The notes: generated by a model from the letters alone, not told the origin. Shown: positions 10,912-64,000, counted from the first letter of the stretch. The stretch is DNA of 64,000 nucleotides from Candidatus Woesearchaeota archaeon (GCA_043803105.1 JAZDKJ010000006.1:32001-96000); one strand, 5' to 3'. Program-made: numbers and translations.

Positions 10912-12447
10912 ATGGTTAAGGGCCTTGTGGTCAGTGGTGAGTTTGGCAAGATTTTGGTTCGTGAGAAGTCAGGTGCTGCCTTTGAGTTGGGCGAGCTCCT
11001 AATTGCCGATACCCCTGATTCTAAGTTCTTGCTGCAGGTCTATGACCTTGCTTACGGGTCCCAAGTCTCTCAATCTAACAGGGAGTTGGTTGCAGGAATG
11101 CACCTTGAAGAGAATTCTTCTTTTGAATTTCTTGATCCAGCCTTAAGAAATTACAATATGGCTTTGTTGAAGAACCTGCTCACCATCGGAAAAAATCATG
11201 TCAGCATCTCAAAGACACTGCCGATTTTTTTCTCTGAGGTGCGCGAGCTCGCTGCACAAGACATAAATTTCCTCACCAAGCCTAAGAATCCTCTTGTTAT
11301 CGGCAAGTTGCGCTCAGGTTCAAAAGTGCTCGATGTAGATGTTTGTCTTCCTGCTGATAAGGTTTTCGCGCACCATGTGCTCATAGCAGGAACTACTGGA
11401 AGAGGCAAAAGTGTTCTTATTAAGAATATTCTGTGGAGTGCGCTGCTCGACACATACTGTGGTATCCTTGTTCTTGATCCTCATGATGAGTATTATGGCA
11501 GGAACTCCATTGGCTTAAAGGATCATCCCAATTCCTCAAGGTTGATTTATTACACTCCAAAAAATGCCCCTGCAGGCGCAAGGACTATGCGTATCAACCT
11601 TGCTCTGTTAAAACCTCACCACTTTGCTGGTGTTGTTTATTGGTCTGATCCCCAGGAGCAGATGCTGACAAGTTTTTATCGGCATTACAGGGATAATTGG
11701 ATTGAGTCCCTGTTGCTCGACAACAAGCTACCTAGCGTGGAATTTGCTGAGGGCACGATAAATGTTGTCAAGCGCCGTTTGATGAACCTTCTTGGCTTGA
11801 GAGTTGTAGATGGGGCCCTCATTTGTGAAGGCATCTTTGACAAGACCTCTGGTTTAACCACCGTTGATGATATCTGCAAGGACCTTGAGGAGAGCAAGGT
11901 TGTAGTCCTTGATTCATCATCCCTTGCTGGTGATGTTGAGGTTTTGGTCGGTAGCCTTGTTGCCTCAGAGGTTTTTCACAGGTATAAGGAATACCGCACC
12001 AAGGGACAGAAGGATAAGCCAGTGATTTCCATAGTTTTGGAAGAAGCTCCTCGGGTCTTGGGTAAAGAGGTTTTGGAAAAAGGCCCTAACATTTTTTCTT
12101 CTATTGCTAGGGAAGGCAGAAAGTTTGGCGTGGGCATAACAGCCGTTACTCAGCTTCCCTCACTCATTCCGAGGGAGATTCTGGCAAATATCAACACAAA
12201 GATTATCCTTGGTATTGAGATGAAGCTTGAGCGGCAGGCAATCATTGAGTCTGCTTCCCAGGATTTGTCAGACGATGACCGAACTATCGCGTCTCTTGAC
12301 ACAGGCGAAGCCTTGGTAAGCAGCAACTTTGTTAAGTTTGCCACCCCCATAAAGATTCCGTTTTTTGAGGATCTGGTAAAGGAAAATCTGTCGTCAGGCC
12401 ATGCCGCAAAGAAAAGCTTTGCTGGCCTGAAAATGAGCTTTCAATAA
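10912..12447 (+). CDS. herA: HerA DNA double-strand-break repair ATPase
   Basis: HAS-barrel-like N-terminus, [24 protein letters not shown] and AREGRKFG. Adjacent to mre11. Confidence 0.85.
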
Positions 12448-12480
12448 GTTTTATATAACAGCTTTCTTTCTTGTGAAATA

Positions 12481-13677
12481 ATGAAATTTGCCCATCTTGC
12501 TGATTGTCACCTGGGTGCCTGGAGAGAACCCAAGTTAAGGGACCTTAATTTAAAGGCTTTTTCGAAGGCAATTGACCTTTGCATCAATGAGAAGGTTGAT
12601 TTTGTTGTCATTGCAGGCGACCTTTTCAACAATTCTTATCCAAGTCATGATAGTCTTATGTCGGCAGTAATCAAGCTTCGCGAGCTACGGGAAAAATCCA
12701 TTCCAGTCTATGTCATTGCTGGCAGCCATGATTTTTCTGCCACCGGGAAGACAATGATTGACGTCCTGGAAGAAGCAGGTTTGCTAGTGAATGTTGCTGC
12801 AGTCTCTATGAATGAAGGCAATCCAGTATTCAAGCTGACCTTGGATACTAAAACGGGCGTATTCCTTTGTGGCATTCCCGGACTAAAGGGGATGCTCGAC
12901 AAGAAGTATTACGAGTCCATTAAGCAATACGAGAACAAGCCTGGTTATAAGATTTTCCTGTTTCACACTACGCTTACCGAGCTGAAACCATCTGAACTAA
13001 AGGAAGCTGAGTCTTTGCCGCTATCTCTTCTGCCAAAGGGTTTTAGCTATTATGCAGGTGGTCATGTGCATTACGTCTTTGAAAAGACTGAACCAGGTTA
13101 TGGCACTATTGCCTTTCCAGGTCCAACATTTCCGAACAATATGAAAGAGGTTGAAGACCTTGGTCGAGGCGGTCTCTTTATAGTTGATAATGGAATTGCA
13201 AAATGGCACCCTATCCAGGTGCTCAACACTTTTGTCATCGACGTCGATTGTGATCATAAAAGCCCGCAGCAGGTGGAGTCAGCTATTGTTGAATTGTCTA
13301 AGAACAAAGAATTTAACGAGACCCTTGTTGCCTTGCGGCTTCACGGCACACTTGGTTCAGGTTCGCCGGCAGATATTGACTTTAAAAAGGTTTATGGTTT
13401 TCTATACGATAAATCCGCTTACTTTGTTATGAAGAACACAGCAAAACTGGCCTCCAAGGAATTTGTCCAGATAAACGTGGAGCACAAGTCTGTTGAGGAA
13501 ATGGAAGCTAAGCTTATTCGAGAGCATCTTGATCAAGTCAAGGGCCCTTCCAATGAACTGGAAGCCACAAAAGACCTTATGCATGCCTTGGGAAGGGAAA
13601 AGCCTGAAGGCGAGAAAGTCTCTGATTTTGAGTCAAGGATAGTCAAGGAATCCATGCATGCCTTGGACTTAGGTTAA
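12481..13677 (+). CDS. mre11: Mre11 DNA repair nuclease
   Basis: HLADCHLG, AGDLF, GSHD, FH, GGHVH and FPG motifs. Confidence 0.9.
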   Translation: MKFAHLADCHLGAWREPKLRDLNLKAFSKAIDLCINEKVDFVVIAGDLFNNSYPSHDSLMSAVIKLRELREKSIPVYVIAGSHDFSATGKTMIDVLEEAGLLVNVAAVSMNEGNPVFKLTLDTKTGVFLCGIPGLKGMLDKKYYESIKQYENKPGYKIFLFHTTLTELKPSELKEAESLPLSLLPKGFSYYAGGHVHYVFEKTEPGYGTIAFPGPTFPNNMKEVEDLGRGGLFIVDNGIAKWHPIQVLNTFVIDVDCDHKSPQQVESAIVELSKNKEFNETLVALRLHGTLGSGSPADIDFKKVYGFLYDKSAYFVMKNTAKLASKEFVQINVEHKSVEEMEAKLIREHLDQVKGPSNELEATKDLMHALGREKPEGEKVSDFESRIVKESMHALDLG

Positions 13678-54112: not shown

Positions 54113-57100
54113 TTAGGCAGCCTTCTTAAATGGCATAGTTTTATGCTCAGAATTGAATTTTATCACTGGCGTGCCAGCGTACCACCTATCTGCCAACAGT
54201 GTTGCAACATCTTGCCTGTCATTAACATTTGCTTCGTTTGCAGTAGTTGTACCGCAACGCTGCGCTAATTCTAGGGTGTACTCCTCAAAAACACTGTCTA
54301 AGTCCAATTCAGGATAATTGTTGTAGACACCTAGCTGTATTATTTTTCCTTGGTTTGTCATTGCTATCAGCCTTCTGGCCATGATGTCACCTGCTTTATC
54401 AAAACAATAAAGTACCCTCTTGTTAACATCCAAAGCGTTCGTCACAGTAGTCCATGAATTAGAACCGTCTGTGGCAAGACAGCTGCCTCCAACAACATTG
54501 CCCATCTGCAATATTTTTATTGGGTTCTGTTCCGTGTAGACTGTTACTCTTCTTGCATTCTGTATGAACTGTGTCTTGCCTTGCAGTCCTTTGATCGCGT
54601 TCAGATGTCCTGCTATATCCTTGGCTAAGTCCTGCTTATCCTTCAAATCAGTGAGTCTTTTATCAAACTCATCTTCTTTGACTTCTAAACCTGCTTCCCG
54701 AAAATGGCGTACTATTTCTTCCCTGTGTTCTCCGATTATTTTCTCTGTGTTTGCCGAAAAATCAGTTAGGTTTGCTAGGTACTCTTTTTTAAAACCTTCA
54801 ACCCAAATGTTCATGTCTATTCCCCAGCTTTTCATTTTCCCCATGTATTCAATATTTGCCTGTTGGTTGTAAGGATACGCTTGAGGTAATCTCTTGAATG
54901 GATACGTATTCTTGAGGCATATCTCCTGTACAAGCCTTTTGGCCGGCTCTCTATTCTGGCCTGGATGGCACTTGACTGCGATTTGTAGCACATCCGTTAT
55001 GTCCTCCTCATTGTCCAGCTCAGCAGGCAAAGGTACTCCACAATATTTTTCAAAAGCATCCCGCACTTTCTGGCTGGTTAACGCATTAAAGTATTCAATT
55101 GATAGGTCCATCAAGACTTTATTGATGTATTCAAATGCCGACTTCTCGTTTTGTGTATTGAACTTTTCTATGTTCTTCCTCAATTTGTCTAGGTTCTTTG
55201 GCTTCTTTGAGAGTTGTGAGGTTAGGAAAAGATAAACTCTTTCTATGTCTGCTGGATTCAAGCTTTCTTTGTTGCCTTTTGAGACAAAAAGTCTGTAACT
55301 TCTGCAGGCTCTTGCCAGCACAAGCAATTCCCTTGAGATATCCTCATTAAGTATTGTTAGGTGCGCAATATTAAATAATACTCGCATGAAATTTTTGGGA
55401 GATTGCTCCATCAGGTTGATTATGTAGTCACCAAAATGTTCAAAAATACTTGAGCTTATCTTGTCGAGATACTTCATTTGCCGAAGTTTTACCCTGCTGT
55501 GCTCAACCTCTGCAGACATGAACCTGAAGCAACTGTTGAAAATGCGAATCACTTCTGCGTTGGTACTTGGGTCCACCTTTTCAACCATTTTGCTGCAAAG
55601 GTTCAGCAATTCTTCGCGCGGTGATTCATTAAAGTCCTTTAAGGTCTGGACTACCTCTTTTCCACCGTTCTCTATGAAAGTCTGAAAGCTGGCAATATGC
55701 TTGGGTTGCAAGATCTTGAGCACTGAAAACAAGCTGGCAAGAAGGTTTGTGTCAAAATCACCCAATACTTGCCACAGGTAGTCCACCTCATTCAGATTTG
55801 TTAGGAATGGCAAGATCGAGATTAGGTTGCCTTCATAAACGTCAATGTTTGGACCATATTTGCTAACGTTGAATTCAAGGTAGCCCAGTAAAGTCTTATG
55901 TTCCAATGCTGTAGACAATCTCTGTCCAGTCATCTTCATTATACTGCGAAAGAGGAGCTTAGGATATTTTGTAGACCTTGCTGCTTCAATTATCTGAGGA
56001 AGCTGCTGCCTGACCCCTTCTCTTTGCTCCCTTGCCAGGAGCATTTGCAGCAATTCTTCATCAGTAATCTCTTCACAAAGGCTTAGCAATAGGTCGATAT
56101 CTGATTGTTCTAGAAGAGGTTTTGAAAGCCTGGAAATAGGTTGGCAAAAAGAGAAGAAATCCATCTCTGTCCCCGGTTCTGCGAATTGCCATTTCTTGTA
56201 AACTCTAATGAGTCTTTTTAGGTTTTTTTCGGTGAAAGACAAATCACATGCAAATGACCTCCAATCTCGCAAGCAAAGCCATAAGGCATATCCCAGTTCA
56301 TCCACCCTTAGGCCTGCGCTCTTATAGCTCTTCATAACTGCAAAAAGTGTGTCAAATAATTGCCCATGATAATTGTTGAAGAGGTATCCTGAATCTTCAA
56401 AAACCGCAGTCAGCACAAAGCAAGGAGCACGCTCATCAAATAAAAAGAATTTCTCCGCCACTGAACTGATTAGATGCAAGTCTTCTGGGCTTTTTATTTC
56501 TTTCCTTACGCGAGGGATTTGTTCCTGGCAGACAGTCCTGCCAAGGTGTTCTCCGGTTGTTCCTCCTCTTATTATTGTGGCGAGCAAAATTAATGTCTCT
56601 CTTAGCCGAACTACTGTTGCTTCAAGCATCTTCGTTTTCTTTGCTGTCCATTGAACATAAAAGTCTCTCAGATTCTCTTGGAAATATGGGTCCTGGTAGA
56701 CTTCTTCTGGATTTTTGCCATATGCAGAAAATTGGTCCCTAAGGTTTTTTATCTCTTCAGGAGGCACATCCTTGAAAATGATATCCTCAAATGGCACTAG
56801 GCATAACCACACATACCAGTAGTGGTCAGAATAGAACTGCGCAGGGCCAATGATTTTCTTGACTTTCTCAACTAAGTTCCAGTTTTCAAGCAAAATCTTG
56901 GTTAGAAACGGATTAGCAAACTGGTTGTAACCATTTTTCAGGAGCCATTTTCTTCTTTCAAAGTATTGGTCTTTTTTATACATGCTCTGCAATAAATGGA
57001 GCCTTCGGATATTTAAAAGAAAAGCCGAATCTAATTGGCAAACAAGTCTCTGCATTTTTTCTTGAAGTTGTGACTGTGCATCTGTTGATATCGAAGTTGA

Positions 57101-57379
57101 GTTTTTCATTTGTTCTGCTAAAACCCTAAGCGATTTGAGATACTCATCTACATGATTGAACAATTCTTCCAGATTGTTATACTGAAAGTGTCTTTTCCAA
57201 GTGTAACCTGGCATTTTTTTCATTCGCGTTTCAATCAATTTAGATACATCTATCAATGATTGAATCGACTCTTTGTGCCAGAACCAGCTCTTGGGGATCT
57301 TATACTTTGGTGATGTCAACAAATCGTGCAGCTTTTGGATCTCAATAACAGTTTCTTGGATATTTCCATTCGGCGGCAT
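54113..57379 (-). CDS. Large (1088 aa) helical hypothetical protein with a conserved-looking C-terminal alpha/beta domain
   Basis: Long ORF. C-terminal NPIKILQMG...SCL..DG.N.....NALDVNKRVLY....ARRLI. Confidence 0.7.
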   Translation of the reverse strand: MPPNGNIQETVIEIQKLHDLLTSPKYKIPKSWFWHKESIQSLIDVSKLIETRMKKMPGYTWKRHFQYNNLEELFNHVDEYLKSLRVLAEQMKNSTSISTDAQSQLQEKMQRLVCQLDSAFLLNIRRLHLLQSMYKKDQYFERRKWLLKNGYNQFANPFLTKILLENWNLVEKVKKIIGPAQFYSDHYWYVWLCLVPFEDIIFKDVPPEEIKNLRDQFSAYGKNPEEVYQDPYFQENLRDFYVQWTAKKTKMLEATVVRLRETLILLATIIRGGTTGEHLGRTVCQEQIPRVRKEIKSPEDLHLISSVAEKFFLFDERAPCFVLTAVFEDSGYLFNNYHGQLFDTLFAVMKSYKSAGLRVDELGYALWLCLRDWRSFACDLSFTEKNLKRLIRVYKKWQFAEPGTEMDFFSFCQPISRLSKPLLEQSDIDLLLSLCEEITDEELLQMLLAREQREGVRQQLPQIIEAARSTKYPKLLFRSIMKMTGQRLSTALEHKTLLGYLEFNVSKYGPNIDVYEGNLISILPFLTNLNEVDYLWQVLGDFDTNLLASLFSVLKILQPKHIASFQTFIENGGKEVVQTLKDFNESPREELLNLCSKMVEKVDPSTNAEVIRIFNSCFRFMSAEVEHSRVKLRQMKYLDKISSSIFEHFGDYIINLMEQSPKNFMRVLFNIAHLTILNEDISRELLVLARACRSYRLFVSKGNKESLNPADIERVYLFLTSQLSKKPKNLDKLRKNIEKFNTQNEKSAFEYINKVLMDLSIEYFNALTSQKVRDAFEKYCGVPLPAELDNEEDITDVLQIAVKCHPGQNREPAKRLVQEICLKNTYPFKRLPQAYPYNQQANIEYMGKMKSWGIDMNIWVEGFKKEYLANLTDFSANTEKIIGEHREEIVRHFREAGLEVKEDEFDKRLTDLKDKQDLAKDIAGHLNAIKGLQGKTQFIQNARRVTVYTEQNPIKILQMGNVVGGSCLATDGSNSWTTVTNALDVNKRVLYCFDKAGDIMARRLIAMTNQGKIIQLGVYNNYPELDLDSVFEEYTLELAQRCGTTTANEANVNDRQDVATLLADRWYAGTPVIKFNSEHKTMPFKKAA

Positions 57380-57736: not shown

Positions 57737-58141
57737 ATGGTAGTTTTGTTTGATAAGTTTAATCTTCCTGAGGAAGTTCTGGATGTAATTTTTGCTACAA
57801 AGCAGCAGAAAATCGTAGCTACTGAGCTTATAAAATTCATAGTCAAGAACAAGTGTTCTATCGGTAAGGTTGACATGTCACTTTTTGCCACCCAGCTTCA
57901 TGATGGTACATTTGAGACAACAATAGAGGAGGAGCCCTACAAGGGAAAAAAAGTGAGGATCTCCTACAACCGTCGCCAATTCTATGACAGGATCCTTACC
58001 CCAATGAAAAGCATGGGAATGATCGACTATGACTTGTACAAGAAAACATACAGCATCTCTGAGCATTTCAATGCTGAGATGATAAGGATTGGCATTATGT
58101 GGGTCGCTTACCTAAACAAGTTAAAAGCTCAAACACAATAA
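57737..58141 (+). CDS. Conserved hypothetical protein, probably winged-helix; paralogue of 33128..33535
   Basis: YNRRQFYDRILTPMKSMGMIDYD, aligning without gaps to the paralogue. Confidence 0.78.
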   Translation: MVVLFDKFNLPEEVLDVIFATKQQKIVATELIKFIVKNKCSIGKVDMSLFATQLHDGTFETTIEEEPYKGKKVRISYNRRQFYDRILTPMKSMGMIDYDLYKKTYSISEHFNAEMIRIGIMWVAYLNKLKAQTQ

Positions 58142-58270: not shown

Positions 58271-58306
58271 TAGCAACTTTAACCGCCTTTTACAGAAATG
58301 ACAGCG

Positions 58307-58450
58307 ATGAAACAGAAAATCTCTGTAGTGAACGTCAGACTTCCAAGCGAGGCTGTTGCCTGGATTGATTCTTTAGTAATTAAGGGGATCTACTCTAGCA
58401 GGTCCGAGGCTATCAGGGCTTTTGTTCGCGAGTATTTACATGAACGGTGA
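58307..58450 (+). CDS. Ribbon-helix-helix regulator (CopG/CdrS-like, 47 aa)
   Basis: Below the track cut-off. Translation: MKQKISVVNVRLPSEAVAWIDSLVIKGIYSSRSEAIRAFVREYLHER. Alternative in-frame ATG at 58298. Confidence 0.85.
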   Translation: MKQKISVVNVRLPSEAVAWIDSLVIKGIYSSRSEAIRAFVREYLHER

Positions 58451-58456
58451 CTTTGA

Positions 58457-58672
58457 GTGACTGACAAGCTGGTGAGCTTTCGCGTACCTTTAGCCTTAGT
58501 TCTTGAGTCAAGGAGCCGCGTTGAACAAGAGCATTTCAAGGACCTTTCTGAACTCATCCGGGCTGCTATCAGGAGAAAGTTTGCTGAGTCGCAAAAGCCT
58601 GAGCTTGCCGAACTTACAAAACAGGACATCATCAGGGAACTTCAAACCCTGATTGAGAGGCTGAAAAAATGA
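58457..58672 (+). CDS. Second ribbon-helix-helix protein
   Basis: LVSFRVP...FKDLSELIRAAIR. ATGA-coupled to the next gene. Confidence 0.75.
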   Translation: MTDKLVSFRVPLALVLESRSRVEQEHFKDLSELIRAAIRRKFAESQKPELAELTKQDIIRELQTLIERLKK

Positions 58673-61407
58673 AAAAGCCTCTCTTGACTCTTGTTTGCCT
58701 CCTTGCCACGCTCGCGGCCTTGCAGATTTCGCGTGCCGACGAAACAAATTCTTCTATGTACAATCTCACTTTCAACAAGACCATTTGCCTGCTCTCCAAT
58801 GGAACCAATTTCACTTCTTACGACTGCGATAACGACAGCTTCCCCTATTGGCTCGACTGCAATGATTCCAACCAAAATATTAATCCAAATGCCACAGAGC
58901 TATGCAACCGCCTTGATGACAACTGTAATGGCCTGGTTGACGAAGGCTTTGACCAGGACATTGACGGATTTTATCCTGCCTCTTGCGGGTACGGCACATT
59001 TGACTGCAATGATTCCAACCCATTTGTAAACCCCAACTCAACAGAGGTCTTTGGTAATGGATTGGACGATGATTGCAATGCCTCAACCCCTGACAAGCCC
59101 TATCTTAGGGTTCTCATCACAAAGCCTAGCTATCTCCTGGGTGAGACAGGTGCATTAATAGTCAACGCTACCCAAGGGTCATATGTTTACCTCACAATAA
59201 CCACGCCATCGAGCTCGCACAATTCCATCTTGTCCTTGCACGGGCCCTATCCTGTGGTCCAGATGCTTCCGTACATTAGGAAGGTTGGAACATACATTGT
59301 TGACGCGAGTCTTGATTACATGAATTATGCAAATAGCACCAGAATAACATTCTCTGTTGAGAATACAATCGCCGCCCAGATCATTGGTAGCTCATCAGTC
59401 CCAAGGAACGGGCAGCTCCAATTAAGTGCCACAGCTGCCGGCGGCATAGGTACACTAAGATACTACTGGGATTTTGGGGATTCTACTTTCTCCGTAGGAA
59501 GCTCCCAGACTCACATTTATACGAGTGTTGGCAGGCGCACTATTTGGCTGTATGTAAATGACTCTGAACAAAACCAATGGAGGACATCAAAAGATATTGA
59601 CGTTTATGACAATTACCGCTTGACTGTTGCTGTGCGCAACTCCTCCTTTGGGGTGAAGAACGCTAAGGTGGAGCTAAATAGCGACCAAAAACTCACGAAT
59701 GATTCTGGCCTCGTGCAATTCACTTCTCTTCTGAGGGGTATTTACTATCTTAAGGTCTCGCGCTCAGGTTATGAGCCCTACTTAGAGACAATCAATCTCA
59801 CTGCGAATCTGTCAAGGATTGTGCAGCTCATAGCAACTGAAACTACCCTGCCAGTTGTAACCCTGGTGGCTCCTGCTGATGGTCAGGAGTTTGAACCTGG
59901 CAAGGTACAGTTGCGATTTCATGCCTCTGACAGCAGCAACATGGAATGTGTGCTCTACTTGAGCTTGGACAATTCTTGGTGGAGCAAGGAGGCTGTTTTC
60001 GAAAATGTGGTAAGCAACCAAGAGTACTCGTATGCATTGAACAACCCTCAGCAAACTACCTACTGGTGGAAAGTCCGCTGCCAGGATTCTGACTCCAATG
60101 CGCAGTTTAGTCAGGTGTTTAAGTTCATTGTGAGATCAAAGGAAGCACAGCAAGACGCGTCCCAAGACACGACAATACAACCTGTTGCCACTGATGATGA
60201 GAATGCCGACCTCCTCGCCCAGATTGATACTTACCGTGACTCTCTGGCAAAGCTTCCGTCCGTTGAAGCAGAGGCGGCTCAACTGCTTGGGCTGGACGCT
60301 CAACTGCTTGATGCCAAGAAGAATATCCAGAACTATGGTCGTGATATCTTTAATGTCAAGTTCCGCAAACTCACCGATGCCGAGAAGGCTAATCTTACTT
60401 ATGACCTAACACAGAGGCTGGAGTTTCAAAAAAAGAGCATAATCAAGAACCTGCAGGTGCTTAAGCACAACAACTTTGTCAAGTATAGTTCCAGCGCAGA
60501 CCTCAAGCTCTTGGTCTCGCTGCTCACCAATTCGTCTGTCACAGCCTCTTCCCTCACACCGCTTCAACACCTGCTAACAGTCTCTACAAAGGTCTTTGTG
60601 GTGAGGCTTGAGTTCTTGGGCTTGGAGCCCAAGATCCTTACACTAGTGCAAAAATCAGTGCAAATCTCAAACGCTTCTCAACTGGGTTCTGTTTTGGAGG
60701 TTGTGCCTAAAGAGTTTGCTAGGTCAGCATCTGAATTGAAGGTTCTTGGCGTTTACAAGGTTTTGCAGGATGATCCAGTCCTTGAGTTTGTTCCTAACGA
60801 TTCTCTTGTAATCCAATACAGTGTGGATAAGGAGGTTGATCCGGCGATTGTTGAGTCATCAATCACCGCTGGTCTCCCCACAACTGTTGCGTTGTCAAAT
60901 AAGGTTACCGGATTTGCGGTTGGAAATCTCTCAAAGGGTATAATGGATAATTCCCTTTATATCCTCATAATTGCAGTCCTTGTCAGTGTCATGCTACTTC
61001 TTGCATACAAATGGGAGGACCTTAGCCAAAGTTTTGCTAAAGTCAATACCCCTATGCCTCGAGAGTTTATTGTTTTATCACAGAAGTTGATAGAGCGCCT
61101 GAATAATGACAATCTAACAAGCGCGAGAACTATCTATAGGGAGCTGCAGCAGGAATACGCAAAGTCACCTAAGGAGGTTAAGGCTGCTGTCTCGTTTGAA
61201 GTTCTTCATCTCTTTCATCGGTTGCAGTTCTCTGAGTTGCAGCACACCGCAGCCCGCATAAAAACCTATTGCGAGGATGGCGATCTTGAGCAGGCAAAGC
61301 ACCACTACCATTCAATTAATCAAATGTATTCCAAACTGCCACGGCACCTAAAGGAGCAGGCCTTTGAGACCTGCATCGGGGCTCGCAAGAGGATAGATGA
61401 GAACTAG
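58669..61407 (+). CDS. Secreted, membrane-anchored multidomain surface protein
   Basis: Signal peptide, MopE-like DCND...NP.ATE.C..LDD.C repeats, PKD (YYWDFGD), carboxypeptidase-regulatory-like and Ig-like domains, VTGFAV plus TM helix, and two cytoplasmic helical repeats. Confidence 0.8.
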   Translation: MKKPLLTLVCLLATLAALQISRADETNSSMYNLTFNKTICLLSNGTNFTSYDCDNDSFPYWLDCNDSNQNINPNATELCNRLDDNCNGLVDEGFDQDIDGFYPASCGYGTFDCNDSNPFVNPNSTEVFGNGLDDDCNASTPDKPYLRVLITKPSYLLGETGALIVNATQGSYVYLTITTPSSSHNSILSLHGPYPVVQMLPYIRKVGTYIVDASLDYMNYANSTRITFSVENTIAAQIIGSSSVPRNGQLQLSATAAGGIGTLRYYWDFGDSTFSVGSSQTHIYTSVGRRTIWLYVNDSEQNQWRTSKDIDVYDNYRLTVAVRNSSFGVKNAKVELNSDQKLTNDSGLVQFTSLLRGIYYLKVSRSGYEPYLETINLTANLSRIVQLIATETTLPVVTLVAPADGQEFEPGKVQLRFHASDSSNMECVLYLSLDNSWWSKEAVFENVVSNQEYSYALNNPQQTTYWWKVRCQDSDSNAQFSQVFKFIVRSKEAQQDASQDTTIQPVATDDENADLLAQIDTYRDSLAKLPSVEAEAAQLLGLDAQLLDAKKNIQNYGRDIFNVKFRKLTDAEKANLTYDLTQRLEFQKKSIIKNLQVLKHNNFVKYSSSADLKLLVSLLTNSSVTASSLTPLQHLLTVSTKVFVVRLEFLGLEPKILTLVQKSVQISNASQLGSVLEVVPKEFARSASELKVLGVYKVLQDDPVLEFVPNDSLVIQYSVDKEVDPAIVESSITAGLPTTVALSNKVTGFAVGNLSKGIMDNSLYILIIAVLVSVMLLLAYKWEDLSQSFAKVNTPMPREFIVLSQKLIERLNNDNLTSARTIYRELQQEYAKSPKEVKAAVSFEVLHLFHRLQFSELQHTAARIKTYCEDGDLEQAKHHYHSINQMYSKLPRHLKEQAFETCIGARKRIDEN

Positions 61408-64000
61408 AAAAAAGAATAGCATTGGAATAAAGTACTTTCTCTCCATAACTGTGCTCTTAATACTTGCAGTCTCTGTCATGGTGTTGGTAAATCGTTTCAT
61501 AGGTTATGTTTACGTTGAAACCGAGCCTGGGACTATCACCCAAATCAACCTTGCTATAAAGGATCCAACAGTTTACTGGCATGGTTTTTATGGTATTATT
61601 ATGATGGTTCCCCAGTTTGACGCCCAGCAGTCTGCTTTAGCACAGAACGGCAAGATTGACCTCATACATTTGTTATTCCCTTGCCTGCAACCCAATATAC
61701 CGCATGAACTCTATGCCTCCTTGACCCAATACCCTCAATGGGAAACTGTTGTTGCCGCCTTGCCAGCAGATGTGGACGCTTTCCTTGGCCTAAATTCTTC
61801 CGCATATTCCTCAGCAAATAATACATTCACCACAAACATCACCGTAAGATTAGGCCCGACAGTCATTTCCAATGTTCCCGGTACATACACAAAACAGCAG
61901 GTTGCCAACCTTTCATCTTTCAATCTGGGAATCTTGAAAGATGGGCTGGGCAATCTGATTTATGTCACGCAGATTGCTGATTACGTTGAAGGTTTTAGCG
62001 GCCTTACCACAAATTATCAAATAATGGTTGCCACCGGAAACAATACAAACCGGAGGTACTACTTTTTTACAGATCCTTATGATGAGTGCCCCAAGGGCAT
62101 CACCTTCGGCCTTTTTGGCCAGCGCGCCAGGTTGTATGGTTGGGTGAAAGACAATGCCACAGGAGCAAGACTGGATACAGTTGCAGTGATGCTCGCTGAC
62201 AACATGACCTTGACAGATTCTCATGGATTCTATAACTTCAGTGTTCTCTCTGGCATCCAGATAATCGCAGCTGCCAAGAATGGTTACAACAATTTCATCG
62301 ATCTCCTCAACATCTCCCCAGATTCTGTCAGGGAGTATAACATTTCCATGTCCCAGACTGCCAAATATACCTATACTTCTACTGGTGTTGGTCCTGGAAT
62401 CGGGCCTGGCCAGTCTGTTGGTCCTGGCGTAGGTCCGGGCGTGTCGTTTAAGCCTGACGTAGGGCCCTATACTGAAGAGCCAAAGAGGTTCGAAGGGCTT
62501 GACATCTGGATTTCCACAACCAACATAGACAAGATTCTTCGCACAGGCACTTTTGCAGAGGATCCTATTTTTATCTTCAATTTCGGGGTTGATCCATTGC
62601 TTATTGAGTTTTCTGTGAGGGGTAACGTGAGTCCTTCCTTAAAGCTGGACCGAACAACGCTTAGGATTCAGCCTAACTCAATGGCTAATTTGACTGCCAC
62701 TTTCTTCGGAAACCAGCCGCTTGGAAACTATTTCGGAAATATTGACCTTGGTGGTGATATCAATTTCTCAATACCACTCAAGGTGAAGATTGTCAGTGAG
62801 GAAATGCTGCCTGTCGAAGCCCTTATTGTTACGGTCACCCCGACAAAGACCCGGCTTACTCCGGATTCTGACCTGAGATACAAGGTGGACTTGAACAATC
62901 TGTTGACTGATCAGGAGTATGAAGTTTACCTCAAGTATTTCATCAAGGACTTGAACAATTCAAAGATTTTTAGTACCGATGAGGACAAGGTTCATTTGCA
63001 GACCAGTTATTCCCTTTTAAAAAGCTATCATATTCCACGGAATGCTTCGCTTGGTGAATACATTATACAGGTTGATGCCCACTACCTTGAGCTTGTTACT
63101 ACAGGAACAGCCATCTTTGATGTTGTCGCGCCTTTCTTCCAGTACATGGTTTTCGGTTTGATTCCTTTGTGGCAGCTTTTTCTTATGATTGTAGCTCTGC
63201 TGTTCATAATATTCGCAGTCTGGTACATCCGTCGTATGATAAGCCAAAAGAAGCGCTTCCACGTCAAGGTGGAGTTTGACCTTCTTCCAAGTCAAGGCCC
63301 GCGGTCAATTTTTGTGGGCAAGGTCGCAGAGACCAACAAGAAGACCTATCTTGACATGGACAATTTGACTGTCCATACAATAGTTGCGGGTTCCACCGGT
63401 GGTGGTAAGACAATCTCAGCCCAGGTTATAGTAGAGGAATGCTTGATGAAGAACGTGGCTGTTGTGGTTTTTGATCCGACTGCCCAGTGGTCTGGCTATT
63501 TGCGTAAGTGCACTGACAAGAAGATGATGACCTTCTATCCAAAGTTCAACCTGAAAAAGTCTGATGCAAGAGCATTTAAGGGTAACATCCGTTATGTCGA
63601 GAACCCCTATGAGATAATTGACTTGAAAAAGTACATGATTCCCGGCAACATACAGGTTTTCACCATGAACAAGCTTGACCCAAAGGACATAGACATTTTT
63701 GTGGCAAACACTGTTCGCGAGGTGTTCCACTTAAATCTTCCTGAAGCGCGCGAGCTCAAACTCCTGCTTGTATACGATGAAGTTCATAGGCTTTTGCCGA
63801 AGTTCGGTGGCTCGGGTGAAGGGTTTATCCAGATAGAAAGGGCATGCAGAGAGTTCAGAAAATGGGGTGTGGGCGTAATGCTCATCTCACAGGTACTTGC
63901 TGACTTCGTTGGCCAGATTAAGGCAAACATCAACACAGAAATCCAGATGAAAACTAGAGATGAAGGCGACCTGAACAGGATAGAGACCAAATTCGGCAAG
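61397..64000 (+). CDS. Ectodomain-TM-HerA/DUF87-like ATPase fusion protein, truncated by the window end
   Basis: Not in the track. Open for 868 codons from ATG 61397: N-terminal hydrophobic segment, WHGFYG domain, Ig-like domains, TM at about 63150-63230, then HTIVAGSTGGGKT, FDPT, YDEVHR, REFRKWG and ISQ. Confidence 0.88.
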   Translation, partial: MRTRKKNSIGIKYFLSITVLLILAVSVMVLVNRFIGYVYVETEPGTITQINLAIKDPTVYWHGFYGIIMMVPQFDAQQSALAQNGKIDLIHLLFPCLQPNIPHELYASLTQYPQWETVVAALPADVDAFLGLNSSAYSSANNTFTTNITVRLGPTVISNVPGTYTKQQVANLSSFNLGILKDGLGNLIYVTQIADYVEGFSGLTTNYQIMVATGNNTNRRYYFFTDPYDECPKGITFGLFGQRARLYGWVKDNATGARLDTVAVMLADNMTLTDSHGFYNFSVLSGIQIIAAAKNGYNNFIDLLNISPDSVREYNISMSQTAKYTYTSTGVGPGIGPGQSVGPGVGPGVSFKPDVGPYTEEPKRFEGLDIWISTTNIDKILRTGTFAEDPIFIFNFGVDPLLIEFSVRGNVSPSLKLDRTTLRIQPNSMANLTATFFGNQPLGNYFGNIDLGGDINFSIPLKVKIVSEEMLPVEALIVTVTPTKTRLTPDSDLRYKVDLNNLLTDQEYEVYLKYFIKDLNNSKIFSTDEDKVHLQTSYSLLKSYHIPRNASLGEYIIQVDAHYLELVTTGTAIFDVVAPFFQYMVFGLIPLWQLFLMIVALLFIIFAVWYIRRMISQKKRFHVKVEFDLLPSQGPRSIFVGKVAETNKKTYLDMDNLTVHTIVAGSTGGGKTISAQVIVEECLMKNVAVVVFDPTAQWSGYLRKCTDKKMMTFYPKFNLKKSDARAFKGNIRYVENPYEIIDLKKYMIPGNIQVFTMNKLDPKDIDIFVANTVREVFHLNLPEARELKLLLVYDEVHRLLPKFGGSGEGFIQIERACREFRKWGVGVMLISQVLADFVGQIKANINTEIQMKTRDEGDLNRIETKFGK

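Follow-up and report, generated by a model that had tools for sequence, protein, structure and literature searches.

The gene considered here lies on the plus strand at positions 61397..64000 of a 64,000 nucleotide (nt) stretch of DNA from Candidatus Woesearchaeota archaeon (G000:C6:32001-96000; hereafter, the window), which holds the first 868 of its 1293 codons. The frame opening at 61397 stays open to the end of the window (868 amino acids, aa) and runs on in the same contig to a stop at G000:C6:97278, equivalent to window coordinate 65278. The full 1293-aa frame is without internal stops, the ATPase match falls in that single frame, and its parts follow in the order of a signal or anchor helix, a 556-aa ectodomain, a single transmembrane (TM) helix, a cytoplasmic HerA-clade ATPase, and a helical tail. 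Its ATG at 61397 lies within the last 11 nt of the 912-aa surface-protein gene upstream, which ends in a TAG at 61405-61407, and a Shine-Dalgarno-like AGAGGA is positioned 4-9 nt ahead of the ATG. An identical 1293-aa protein is already recorded in a public protein collection and in the ESM Atlas, and the ATPase module is single-copy in this genome, which has three DUF87 genes in total. An original prediction, made from the window, had described an unannotated fusion of an exported ectodomain to an ATPase with intact motifs, overlapping the stop of a surface-protein gene. The gene is intact and that anatomy is correct, with the open frame real, each cited motif found at its place, and the reading frame extending beyond the window. 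Features given in window coordinates are on the plus strand unless stated otherwise.

Two hydrophobic helices bound the ectodomain. The N-terminal helix (residues 13-31; 61433..61489; Kyte-Doolittle 2.73), a candidate signal peptide or signal anchor, has five lysines or arginines (K/R) among the 12 residues before it and a counterpart in 115 of the 118 homologues scored for topology and sequons, a set comprising the 120 listed homologues less two without a recognisable Walker A. The TM helix (residues 588-606; 63158..63214; Kyte-Doolittle 2.69) is followed by RRMISQKKR, with five K/R in the following 15 residues and none before, and was found in 118/118 homologues (median K/R, 6 after and 2 before). 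All but two of the 17 N-X-S/T sequons (15/17) fall between the two helices, with 2.70 sequons per 100 aa in the ectodomain (0.95 expected from composition) compared to 0.29 in the cytoplasmic part (0.37 expected). Pooled across the 118 homologues, 1430 sequons occurred in 67685 ectodomain residues versus 205 in 80858 cytoplasmic residues, and the ectodomain was the richer part in every homologue (118/118). Because of this sequon density and the positive-inside rule, the ectodomain is placed outside the cell and the ATPase in the cytoplasm, with the membrane between them, rather than both on one side. The product thus appears to be bitopic and glycosylated, and it begins with a signal peptide or anchor.

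An AlphaFold2 (AF2) model of the ectodomain, built from a 16-sequence alignment (A2; mean predicted local distance difference test [pLDDT], 75.4; predicted template modelling score [pTM], 0.38), consisted of four beta-rich domains and a disordered Gly-Pro linker. The first domain, D1 (~residues 39-225; 61511..62071; pLDDT mostly 76-93), is beta-rich and was assigned by hhalign to an uncharacterised Woesearchaeota family. The D1 region bears the motifs GTITQINL (45-52), WHGFYG (61-66), and YYFF (221-224), and C96 and C231 were invariant among 16 orthologues. The ESM Atlas gave no usable match for residues 32-242, and the VIA-align and Foldseek lists for the ectodomain, which are dominated by Ig-like (immunoglobulin-like) domains, held no match informative on the D1 fold. 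The second domain, D2 (~residues 243-322; 62123..62362), is predicted to be a transthyretin-like, or carboxypeptidase-regulatory-like, beta-sandwich, which superimposed on the transthyretin-like domain of carboxypeptidase D over ectodomain residues 213-291 (VIA-align; 5aq0_B, Z 13.2, root mean square deviation 1.4 A, 79 aligned residues; 1qmu_A, Z 12.6). Though Pfam gave nothing for D2 at E<=0.1 in this protein, the fold supports the carboxypeptidase-regulatory-like domain of the original prediction, and homologues bear PF13620/PF13715.

D2 is followed by the disordered linker (~residues 322-361; pLDDT 27-32 across ectodomain residues 291-330), within which lies a Gly-Pro repeat hinge (residues 330-349, GVGPGIGPGQSVGPGVGPGV) at exactly the positions, 62384..62443, expected for the predicted (V/I)GPG repeat. 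The length of the hinge differs among the 16 orthologues, and a 12-nt tandem repeat of 1.9 copies at 62420-62442 codes for part of it. Beyond the linker, D3 and D4 (~residues 368-469 and 473-579; 62498..63133) form two Ig-like beta-sandwiches by VIA-align, supporting by fold the Ig-like domains that had been proposed. D3 is PapD/ASH/MSP-like (6fvi_A, Z 11.6; 2e6j, Z 11.3), and D4 resembles the Ig-like domains of dextranase, GH2 enzymes, and macroglobulins (5axg_A, Z 13.6). Foldseek searches with the ectodomain recovered only tandem beta-sandwich proteins (e.g. RbmA, transglutaminase barrels). There was no laminin-G match in the ectodomain at E<=0.1, a protease-like or toxin-like region was likewise not found, and the ectodomains of this protein and of the upstream surface protein were without significant similarity (best E 0.07).

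The cytoplasmic P-loop ATPase module (residues 612-~1000; 63230..64000, the window reaching residue 868) was identified by Pfam, AF2, and Foldseek, and carries a Walker A motif (GSTGGGKT, residues 665-672; 63389..63412), a Walker B motif (LLLVYDEVH, residues 789-797; 63761..63787), and REFRKWG (residues 818-824; 63848..63868), an RE.RK.G motif. REFRKWG aligns with REGRKFG of HerA, both in HMMER alignments to 4d2i and 9c1m and in an hhalign comparison to the genome's own HerA, the last spanning only 86 columns. The G, T, G, G, and K of Walker A and the D794 and E795 of Walker B were invariant in 34 sequences (alignment A1; 74% mean column identity over the module), while the three motifs occurred in 118, 117, and 118, respectively, of the 120 listed homologues. 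Above their cut-offs were the Pfam models DUF87 (PF01935; 44.4 bits vs 23.2) and HerA_C (25.3 vs 22), whereas the family models T4SS-DNA_transf (16.1 vs 20.1), TrwB_AAD_bind (14.1-15.5 vs 20.5), TraD (27.4 vs 366), and FtsK (PF01580; 15.5 vs 24) fell below theirs. NCBIfam HerA equivalogs scored 28.8 bits against a cut-off of 800 and 21.6 against 970, and the best NCBIfam match was a partial one to CedD (residues 639-704; 32.3 bits vs a cut-off of 600). The AF2 model of the module (pLDDT 89.7, pTM 0.90) was closest in Foldseek to HerA (4d2i_A; E 9.6e-12, TMq 0.52), followed by Sir2-HerA and HerA-NurA, with TcpA (E 1.7e-8) and FtsK behind. A PDB profile search agreed, with the HerA family at 2.6e-10 to 6.6e-7, FtsK at 6e-3 (over 28 residues), IcmO at 0.13, and a VirB4-like protein at 0.16. 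Profile and predicted fold together therefore identify the module as a putative ATPase of the HerA clade rather than of the VirB4/TraG type, and the HerA/FtsK-superfamily assignment of the original prediction stands in this narrower form.

From the end of the TM helix (606) to the start of Walker A (665) there are 58 residues, with the DUF87 match running from profile position 1 at residue 638, and this spacing leaves no room for an N-terminal HAS barrel. The TM helix sequences of 15 orthologues, compared by eye, are almost wholly hydrophobic and without a common motif. Beyond the ATPase core, three long helices (module residues 300-370 in the AF2 model, or protein residues 911-981) lead to a low-complexity stretch, a module marked by KNDF..W, and two helical-hairpin repeats. 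The KNDF..W module has a weak DUF5752 match here, and many homologues bear PF19027. In other genomes this module recurs in small downstream products of the operon, and it is also present in a 253-aa protein without hydrophobic helices (L077:1605-2366; E 1e-8 over 76 residues) encoded just upstream of genes for the small secreted proteins described below.

A full-length search recovered 488 homologues of 711-2263 aa (E<=1e-3) among 7999 candidates scored, the best 120 of which covered 59-100% of the query. Homologues in this list were typically ~1200-1400 aa, with 41-66% identity, and carried the source label 'DUF87 domain-containing protein' of Woesearchaeota, Pacearchaeota, or Nanoarchaeota. 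The fusion of ectodomain to ATPase is real, and a single chain holds both the TM helix and Walker A in all but two of the 120 listed homologues (118/120); so far from never being fused, the two halves occur in a single frame in all 120 and at all 20 loci surveyed in other genomes, and a survey across DPANN found the fusion kept in hundreds of proteins. In an exhaustive search, the 441-aa query for the module (residues 560-1000) matched 1127 representatives at E<=1e-3 and 376 at 1e-30, and among the 150 of the 1127 matches listed, the module was placed C-terminally in proteins whose lengths ran from 253 to 6253 aa. Within the phylum, 87 of 401 genomes, from 71 of 281 genera, had the module, with frames as long as 12056 aa. 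Proteins of 2264-5000 aa contributed 191 module matches at E<=1e-5, some labelled by their sources as Nanohaloarchaea, Nanosalina, Aenigmatarchaeota, Micrarchaeota, Anstonellales, and Hadarchaeales. Separately, frames of ~800-1050 aa in other genomes (e.g. G012:C24:18377-18691, G290:C100:9988-10302, G214:C13:21390-21614) lacked the ATPase and matched just the first ~80-105 residues of the query, which take in the last part of D4, the TM helix, and the juxtamembrane residues; an anchor module therefore exists also without the motor. In a FastTree phylogeny of 336 modules (midpoint root; sample skewed to compact forms by the collection method), 123 of 134 compact forms grouped in a single 133-tip clade (support 95) that lay within a wider set of longer forms.

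The original prediction knew of no characterised protein with this architecture, but the published SPEARE design, with functions so far proposed, has the same one. SPEARE proteins are described as having their bulk outside the cell, a TM helix near the C-terminus, and a cytoplasmic portion that is the most conserved (PMC6642349). That portion was read by Hamm et al. 2019 as restriction-enzyme-like, with similar sequences in Woesearchaeota and other DPANN and with DNA uptake as a suggested role (PMC6642349), and by Reva et al. 2023 as a VirB4/TraG-like ATPase followed by a coiled coil, for which a secretion 'straw' was proposed (PMC10266531). The likeness extends to the signal peptide, the extracytoplasmic bulk, the one TM helix, the conserved cytoplasmic ATPase, and the helical or coiled-coil region after it. 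The ATPase module belongs to the same family, with 61% identity to P0161 ('Nanohaloarchaea archaeon') and 51% to P0238 ('Candidatus Nanosalina sp.'), giants labelled nanohaloarchaeal but not the published accessions. A weak ResIII match, the one behind the 'restriction endonuclease' label in the published account, is present here and in many giants.

There are also differences from SPEARE proteins. The ectodomain is 556 aa here versus 3000-9000 aa, it has four domains without a laminin-G, protease-like, or toxin-like region, its N-terminal D1 is absent from giant-fused forms, and the adhesins are separate genes of the same cluster. A VirB4-type gene lies downstream in nanohaloarchaeal loci and none does so here. 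Because of the small four-domain ectodomain without laminin-G, 'compact relative' is preferred over a strict SPEARE protein, and the comparison of sequences identifies the protein as a probable compact, D1-bearing variant of the published SPEARE design, whose architecture was already known. The compact family and its operon were not found in the literature searched, though Fig. S17 and Table S3 of PMC6642349, on non-halophilic relatives, may include members.

The operon begins with an RHH (CopG-type) gene (50 aa; 58298..58450; PF01402 RHH_1, E 8.8e-9) and a second small gene (71 aa; 58457..58672). Two RHH genes had been predicted to lead the operon; this holds for the first, while the second has no Pfam match, and its product may be RHH-like judging from a strand-helix-helix pattern. 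Next is the partner surface protein (912 aa; 58669..61407), identified by Pfam and hydropathy, with a signal peptide, a MopE/PKD/CarboxypepD_reg/Big_7 ectodomain, a TM helix at residues 762-780, and a 132-aa cytoplasmic tail. Its 16 aligned orthologues (A3) always have the TM helix followed by a cytoplasmic tail of 132-200 aa made up of two helical hairpins. The ATPase gene is followed by a coiled-coil protein and then by the giant adhesins. In a survey of 20 loci of other genomes, chosen non-randomly as the best matches on long contigs, the coiled-coil protein was on the same strand in 19 and the bitopic surface protein, directly upstream, in 18, with the second RHH-like gene upstream in 16 and the first RHH gene in 15; the operon is conserved across loci. 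A giant surface protein was downstream in 12 of the 20, several of which end too early to tell, while a 196-aa type (n = 6) and a helix-turn-helix (HTH)-like 186-aa type (n = 4) were less frequent on the same strand. The 196-aa downstream protein was similar both to the tail of the upstream protein (E 7e-5) and to the tail of the ATPase protein (E 1e-6). Judged by hydropathy only, each of the 16 proteins encoded in the cluster and its extension had at most two hydrophobic helices, the rest of the genome not having been searched for CedA. Family scans found no nuclease or relaxase in the operon, and the VirB4 N-domain (PF03135) was not found in this genome, which is 96.5% complete.

Several features flank the operon. 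Directly upstream, on the minus strand, is a 1088-aa open frame (54113-57379) that is blank in Pfam at E<=0.01. Between this frame and the operon, a 134-aa product without a family match is encoded on the plus strand (57737-58141). Homologues with 62-69% identity to it accompany the operon in 3 of the 20 loci, in two of which they are encoded upstream on the same strand. Past the adhesins, G000:C6:116448-125740 holds genes for two KaiC-like ATPases of 253 and 232 aa and for two bitopic proteins, one a surface protein of 1523 aa and the other of 471 aa, together with a DUF7504/DUF835-like gene and a V4R-domain gene.

Downstream of the window, G000:C6:99620-116388 encodes a giant adhesin of 4873 aa and then a 718-aa product. 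With a signal peptide and without a membrane anchor, the giant has 5.8 sequons per 100 aa. The last ~390 residues are common to the two proteins (38% identity, E 2e-65) and consist of an Ig-like domain, a CARDB domain, and a terminal domain of ~180 aa. With a single-sequence query, the terminal domain was found in this genome only in the giant and 718-aa genes, while a profile of 22 such ends (A4), in all of which the domain is the extreme C-terminus, gave four additional weaker matches, all members of a six-paralogue group of small secreted proteins. The genes for these six proteins (241-274 aa; G000:C6:160860-168160) are ~65 kb downstream, and all six products end in YYFYVEL[ET]. Interspersed among these genes are others for two HTH regulators and for two membrane proteins of ~330 aa that are paralogous to each other. 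Using hhalign, D1 matched both the giant C-terminal domain (probability 97.0%, E 1.1e-10, 117 columns) and the six small paralogues (98.5%, E 1.4e-15, 177 columns), and these two matched one another (98.3%, E 1.3e-14). The profile comparisons thus indicate that D1, the giant C-terminal domain, and the small secreted family are mutually homologous.

The shared domain has no credible relatives in the collections searched. For the C-terminal domain, Pfam gave four stray single-member matches among the 22 (best E 0.0085) and PDB sequences a best E of 0.17; for the small proteins, Pfam matched 0/6, their profile gave non-significant legume-lectin matches in the PDB (best E 0.037), and the ESM Atlas returned only Woesearchaeota 'hypothetical protein' clusters. 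A predicted complex of the ectodomain (A2) with the giant C-terminal domain (A4) scored 0.02 against a mark of 0.32, which speaks neither way.

The D1 profile matched 141 of 353 collected proteins, 128 of them compact and 13 mid-length, always N-terminally (~residues 26-268), and 0 of 119 giant-fused proteins. Among the 401 genomes, the C-terminal domain was found in 89, the small D1-family in 103 (usually in four to six or more copies per genome), and both in 84, with totals that include unpublished genomes (G243 and G396 for the C-terminal domain, G243 for the small family). The ATPase co-occurred with the C-terminal domain in 54 genomes, compared to 33 with the ATPase only, 35 with the C-terminal domain only, and 279 with neither. 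By ATPase form, and excluding 15 genomes with partial matches, the C-terminal domain was present in 33 of 43 genomes with compact forms, 3 of 17 with giant-fused forms only, and 7 of 12 with others. Of the 54 genomes with both, 40 were tabulated, and in 24 of these the C-terminal-domain gene was on the ATPase contig, downstream on the same strand and 9.6-43.7 kb away in 22 of the 24.

These distributions, the operon, and the shared domain can be brought together in one reading, to which we assign a probability of roughly 0.5: the gene product would be the membrane base and motor of a multi-protein 'split SPEARE' surface apparatus. In giant forms the adhesin sits in the same chain, for which reason giant-fused forms would need no D1. 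In the compact form the adhesins would instead be the separate, anchor-less secreted 4873-aa and 718-aa proteins, held on the cell through contacts between D1-type domains, possibly with the small secreted D1-family proteins. Beneath the membrane, six ATPase subunits would come together in a hexamer and bundle six stalks, and ATP hydrolysis would be coupled to the surface apparatus. Hexamer formation, the binding of D1 to the C-terminal domain, and the role of ATP hydrolysis are what we infer here. The protein could plausibly act at the cell surface or in host contact, while the contact-activated motor of the original prediction would be pure conjecture. The 'single-chain' device of that prediction does not fit a gene that is one of a conserved multi-gene cluster and whose outer tip domain is common to separately encoded giant adhesins.

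What ATP hydrolysis would do in such an apparatus is a question on which two tentative answers carry equal weight, with a somewhat smaller share left for something else. One possibility, drawn by analogy with CedB/CedD or coupling proteins, is that DNA (or protein) is moved through the cell's own membrane where contact is made, which is favoured by the HerA clade, a ring against the membrane, and the two RHH genes. The other is assembly, clustering, or remodelling of the surface assembly, an organising role favoured by the lack of a channel protein, the plain and unconserved TM helix, and the domains common to surface partners.

Several observations weigh against a split apparatus. Binding and oligomerisation in it are both predictions, and a HerA-type ring that acts on partners outside the cell by way of one TM helix would, to our knowledge, be without precedent. 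The C-terminal domain also occurs in 35 of 314 ATPase-less genomes, small D1-family proteins occur in 41 ATPase-less genomes, and 10 of the 43 compact-ATPase genomes have no C-terminal-domain match; a D1-family assembly without the ATPase in 41 genomes would make the motor an optional addition rather than the core. The distribution counts come from related, non-independent genomes, compact forms are over-sampled in the tree and in the D1 counts because of length-limited searches, and the genomes with only giant-fused forms are mostly more distant, such that a single-sequence query for the C-terminal domain may miss copies in them. Within the operon, the tails of the ATPase protein and the upstream protein lack significant direct similarity (E 0.36), and the C-terminal hairpin tail is missing in 4 of 16 orthologues.

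Among known systems, canonical HerA (4d2i, 9x1l/9x1m) shares the RecA-like core, both Walker motifs, RE.RK.G, and DUF87 above the cut-off, but the present protein is membrane-anchored, has no HAS barrel, and is not encoded beside nurA, mre11, or rad50. As the original prediction noted, a normal herA is present at 10912 (10912-12447; DUF87 E 4.8e-21), beside a gene for an Mre11-like phosphoesterase; this plus-strand group (10912-13677) runs from herA (511 aa) to the phosphoesterase (398 aa) to an ion-channel gene, and the third DUF87 gene, a 447-aa frame, is on contig C12. The coupling proteins (TrwB/VirD4/TraG) and FtsK/SpoIIIE are ring ATPases of the same superfamily, held in the membrane by N-terminal TM helices, as are EssC/EccC of type VII secretion. 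If the first helix is retained, the topology here (N-in, TM, outer loop, TM, ATPase) would resemble that of coupling proteins, with the differences that scores to their models and to FtsK are below cut-offs, the outer loop spans 556 aa where theirs has a few dozen, and no partner secretion genes are present. CedB and CedD of the Sulfolobales Ced (Crenarchaeal DNA-exchange) system combine a TM anchor with a HerA/VirB4-like ATPase and are needed for DNA import (PMC11868833). They share with the present protein a membrane-tethered HerA-clade ATPase, but here there is no VirB4-like N-terminal domain and no CedA/VirB6-like polytopic partner in the cluster (by hydropathy only), and Ced proteins are without a large ectodomain. 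No other functionally tested membrane-anchored archaeal HerA-clade ATPases were met, though no dedicated literature search was made.

The strongest competing explanation, though an unlikely one, is a membrane-embedded DNA translocase in which a HerA-type hexamer with 6 or 12 TM helices would pump DNA in or out at a contact site, in the manner of CedB/CedD, T4SS coupling proteins, or FtsK/SpoIIIE, and the ectodomain would serve only as a contact stalk or conduit. This corresponds to the trans-envelope pump of the original prediction. The ATPase is in the HerA clade, the partial CedD match points to proteins described as required for DNA import (PMC11868833), the topology recalls coupling proteins, the 58 residues between TM helix and Walker A are so few that a ring would abut the membrane, two RHH DNA-binding genes head the operon, and DNA uptake was suggested for SPEARE by Hamm et al. 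(PMC6642349). Set against this, the products of the cluster are bitopic or soluble by hydropathy, with no polytopic VirB6/CedA-like membrane protein among them, the TM helices of 15 orthologues are almost wholly hydrophobic and have no common motif, and for the same two reasons the 'pump' of the original prediction is unsupported. Further, the operon has no nuclease or relaxase, PF03135 was not found in the genome, scores are far under the cut-offs (CedD, 32/600; TraD, 27/366; T4SS-DNA_transf, 16.1/20.1), and a translocase leaves the match of D1 to the ends of the neighbouring giants unexplained.

A bolder arrangement must be considered improbable: the small D1-family proteins might polymerise into an extracellular filament or lattice, rooted by the D1 tip of the hexameric HerA-type motor and capped or decorated by the giants through their D1-type C-terminal domains, to give an ATP-powered tether or conduit to the host. 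If true, this would add to the surface machines of archaea a new class with no relation to type IV pili, archaella, Ced/T4SS (type IV secretion system), or threads, and the giant SPEARE proteins would be a single-chain version of the filament apparatus.

Less probable again is a type IV secretion-like 'straw' that would secrete effector proteins into the host cell through its own ectodomain, as Reva et al. 2023 proposed for nanohaloarchaeal giants of the same architecture (PMC10266531). The weak matches to coupling-protein and VirB4-type models would suit it, but the ATPase is nearer to HerA both by profile (1e-10 vs 0.13-0.16) and by Foldseek (1e-11 vs 1.7e-8 for TcpA), there is no VirB4-type neighbour of the kind in nanohaloarchaeal loci, and four small beta-sandwich domains with a disordered hinge do not suggest a tube in the model (pTM 0.38). 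A role in antiviral defence, as a membrane-tethered HerA like Sir2-HerA, DUF4297-HerA, or MADS triggered at the envelope, seems very improbable. PADLOC gave 50.2 bits for mad8 and 48.4 bits for HerA, and the closest solved structures include Sir2-HerA and DUF4297-HerA complexes, but the PADLOC matches are confined to the common ATPase core, the scan of six other operon proteins returned nothing credible (best, coiled-coil or HTH similarities of 12-21 bits), and no Sir2, nuclease, or other effector is nearby. The partners are instead surface proteins with domains common to the ectodomain, in a gene order fixed over 20 loci, unlike variable defence islands. An assembly chimera or frameshifted join of two genes can be set aside almost completely, given the stop-free 1293-aa frame, an alignment that runs unbroken across the ectodomain-ATPase junction, and the same fusion and domain order in all 20 loci of other genomes and in 118 of the 120 listed homologues.

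DPANN archaea spend their lives attached to other cells through machinery of which little is known and for which SPEARE-type proteins are one of few candidates. The family described here indicates that the SPEARE motor exists also as a compact, strongly conserved form (74% mean column identity) in a fixed operon. Relative to the literature searched, what is new is the operon of the compact family and the wiring by a shared domain, in which the D1-type domain offers a testable plan joining the motor, the giant adhesins, and the small secreted proteins. Expression, assay, and imaging are far less demanding for a protein of 1293 aa whose soluble domains can be separated than for a giant of 6000-9000 aa, and this tractable size could therefore allow the role of the family's ATPase to be settled, be it DNA transport, protein transport, or surface assembly.

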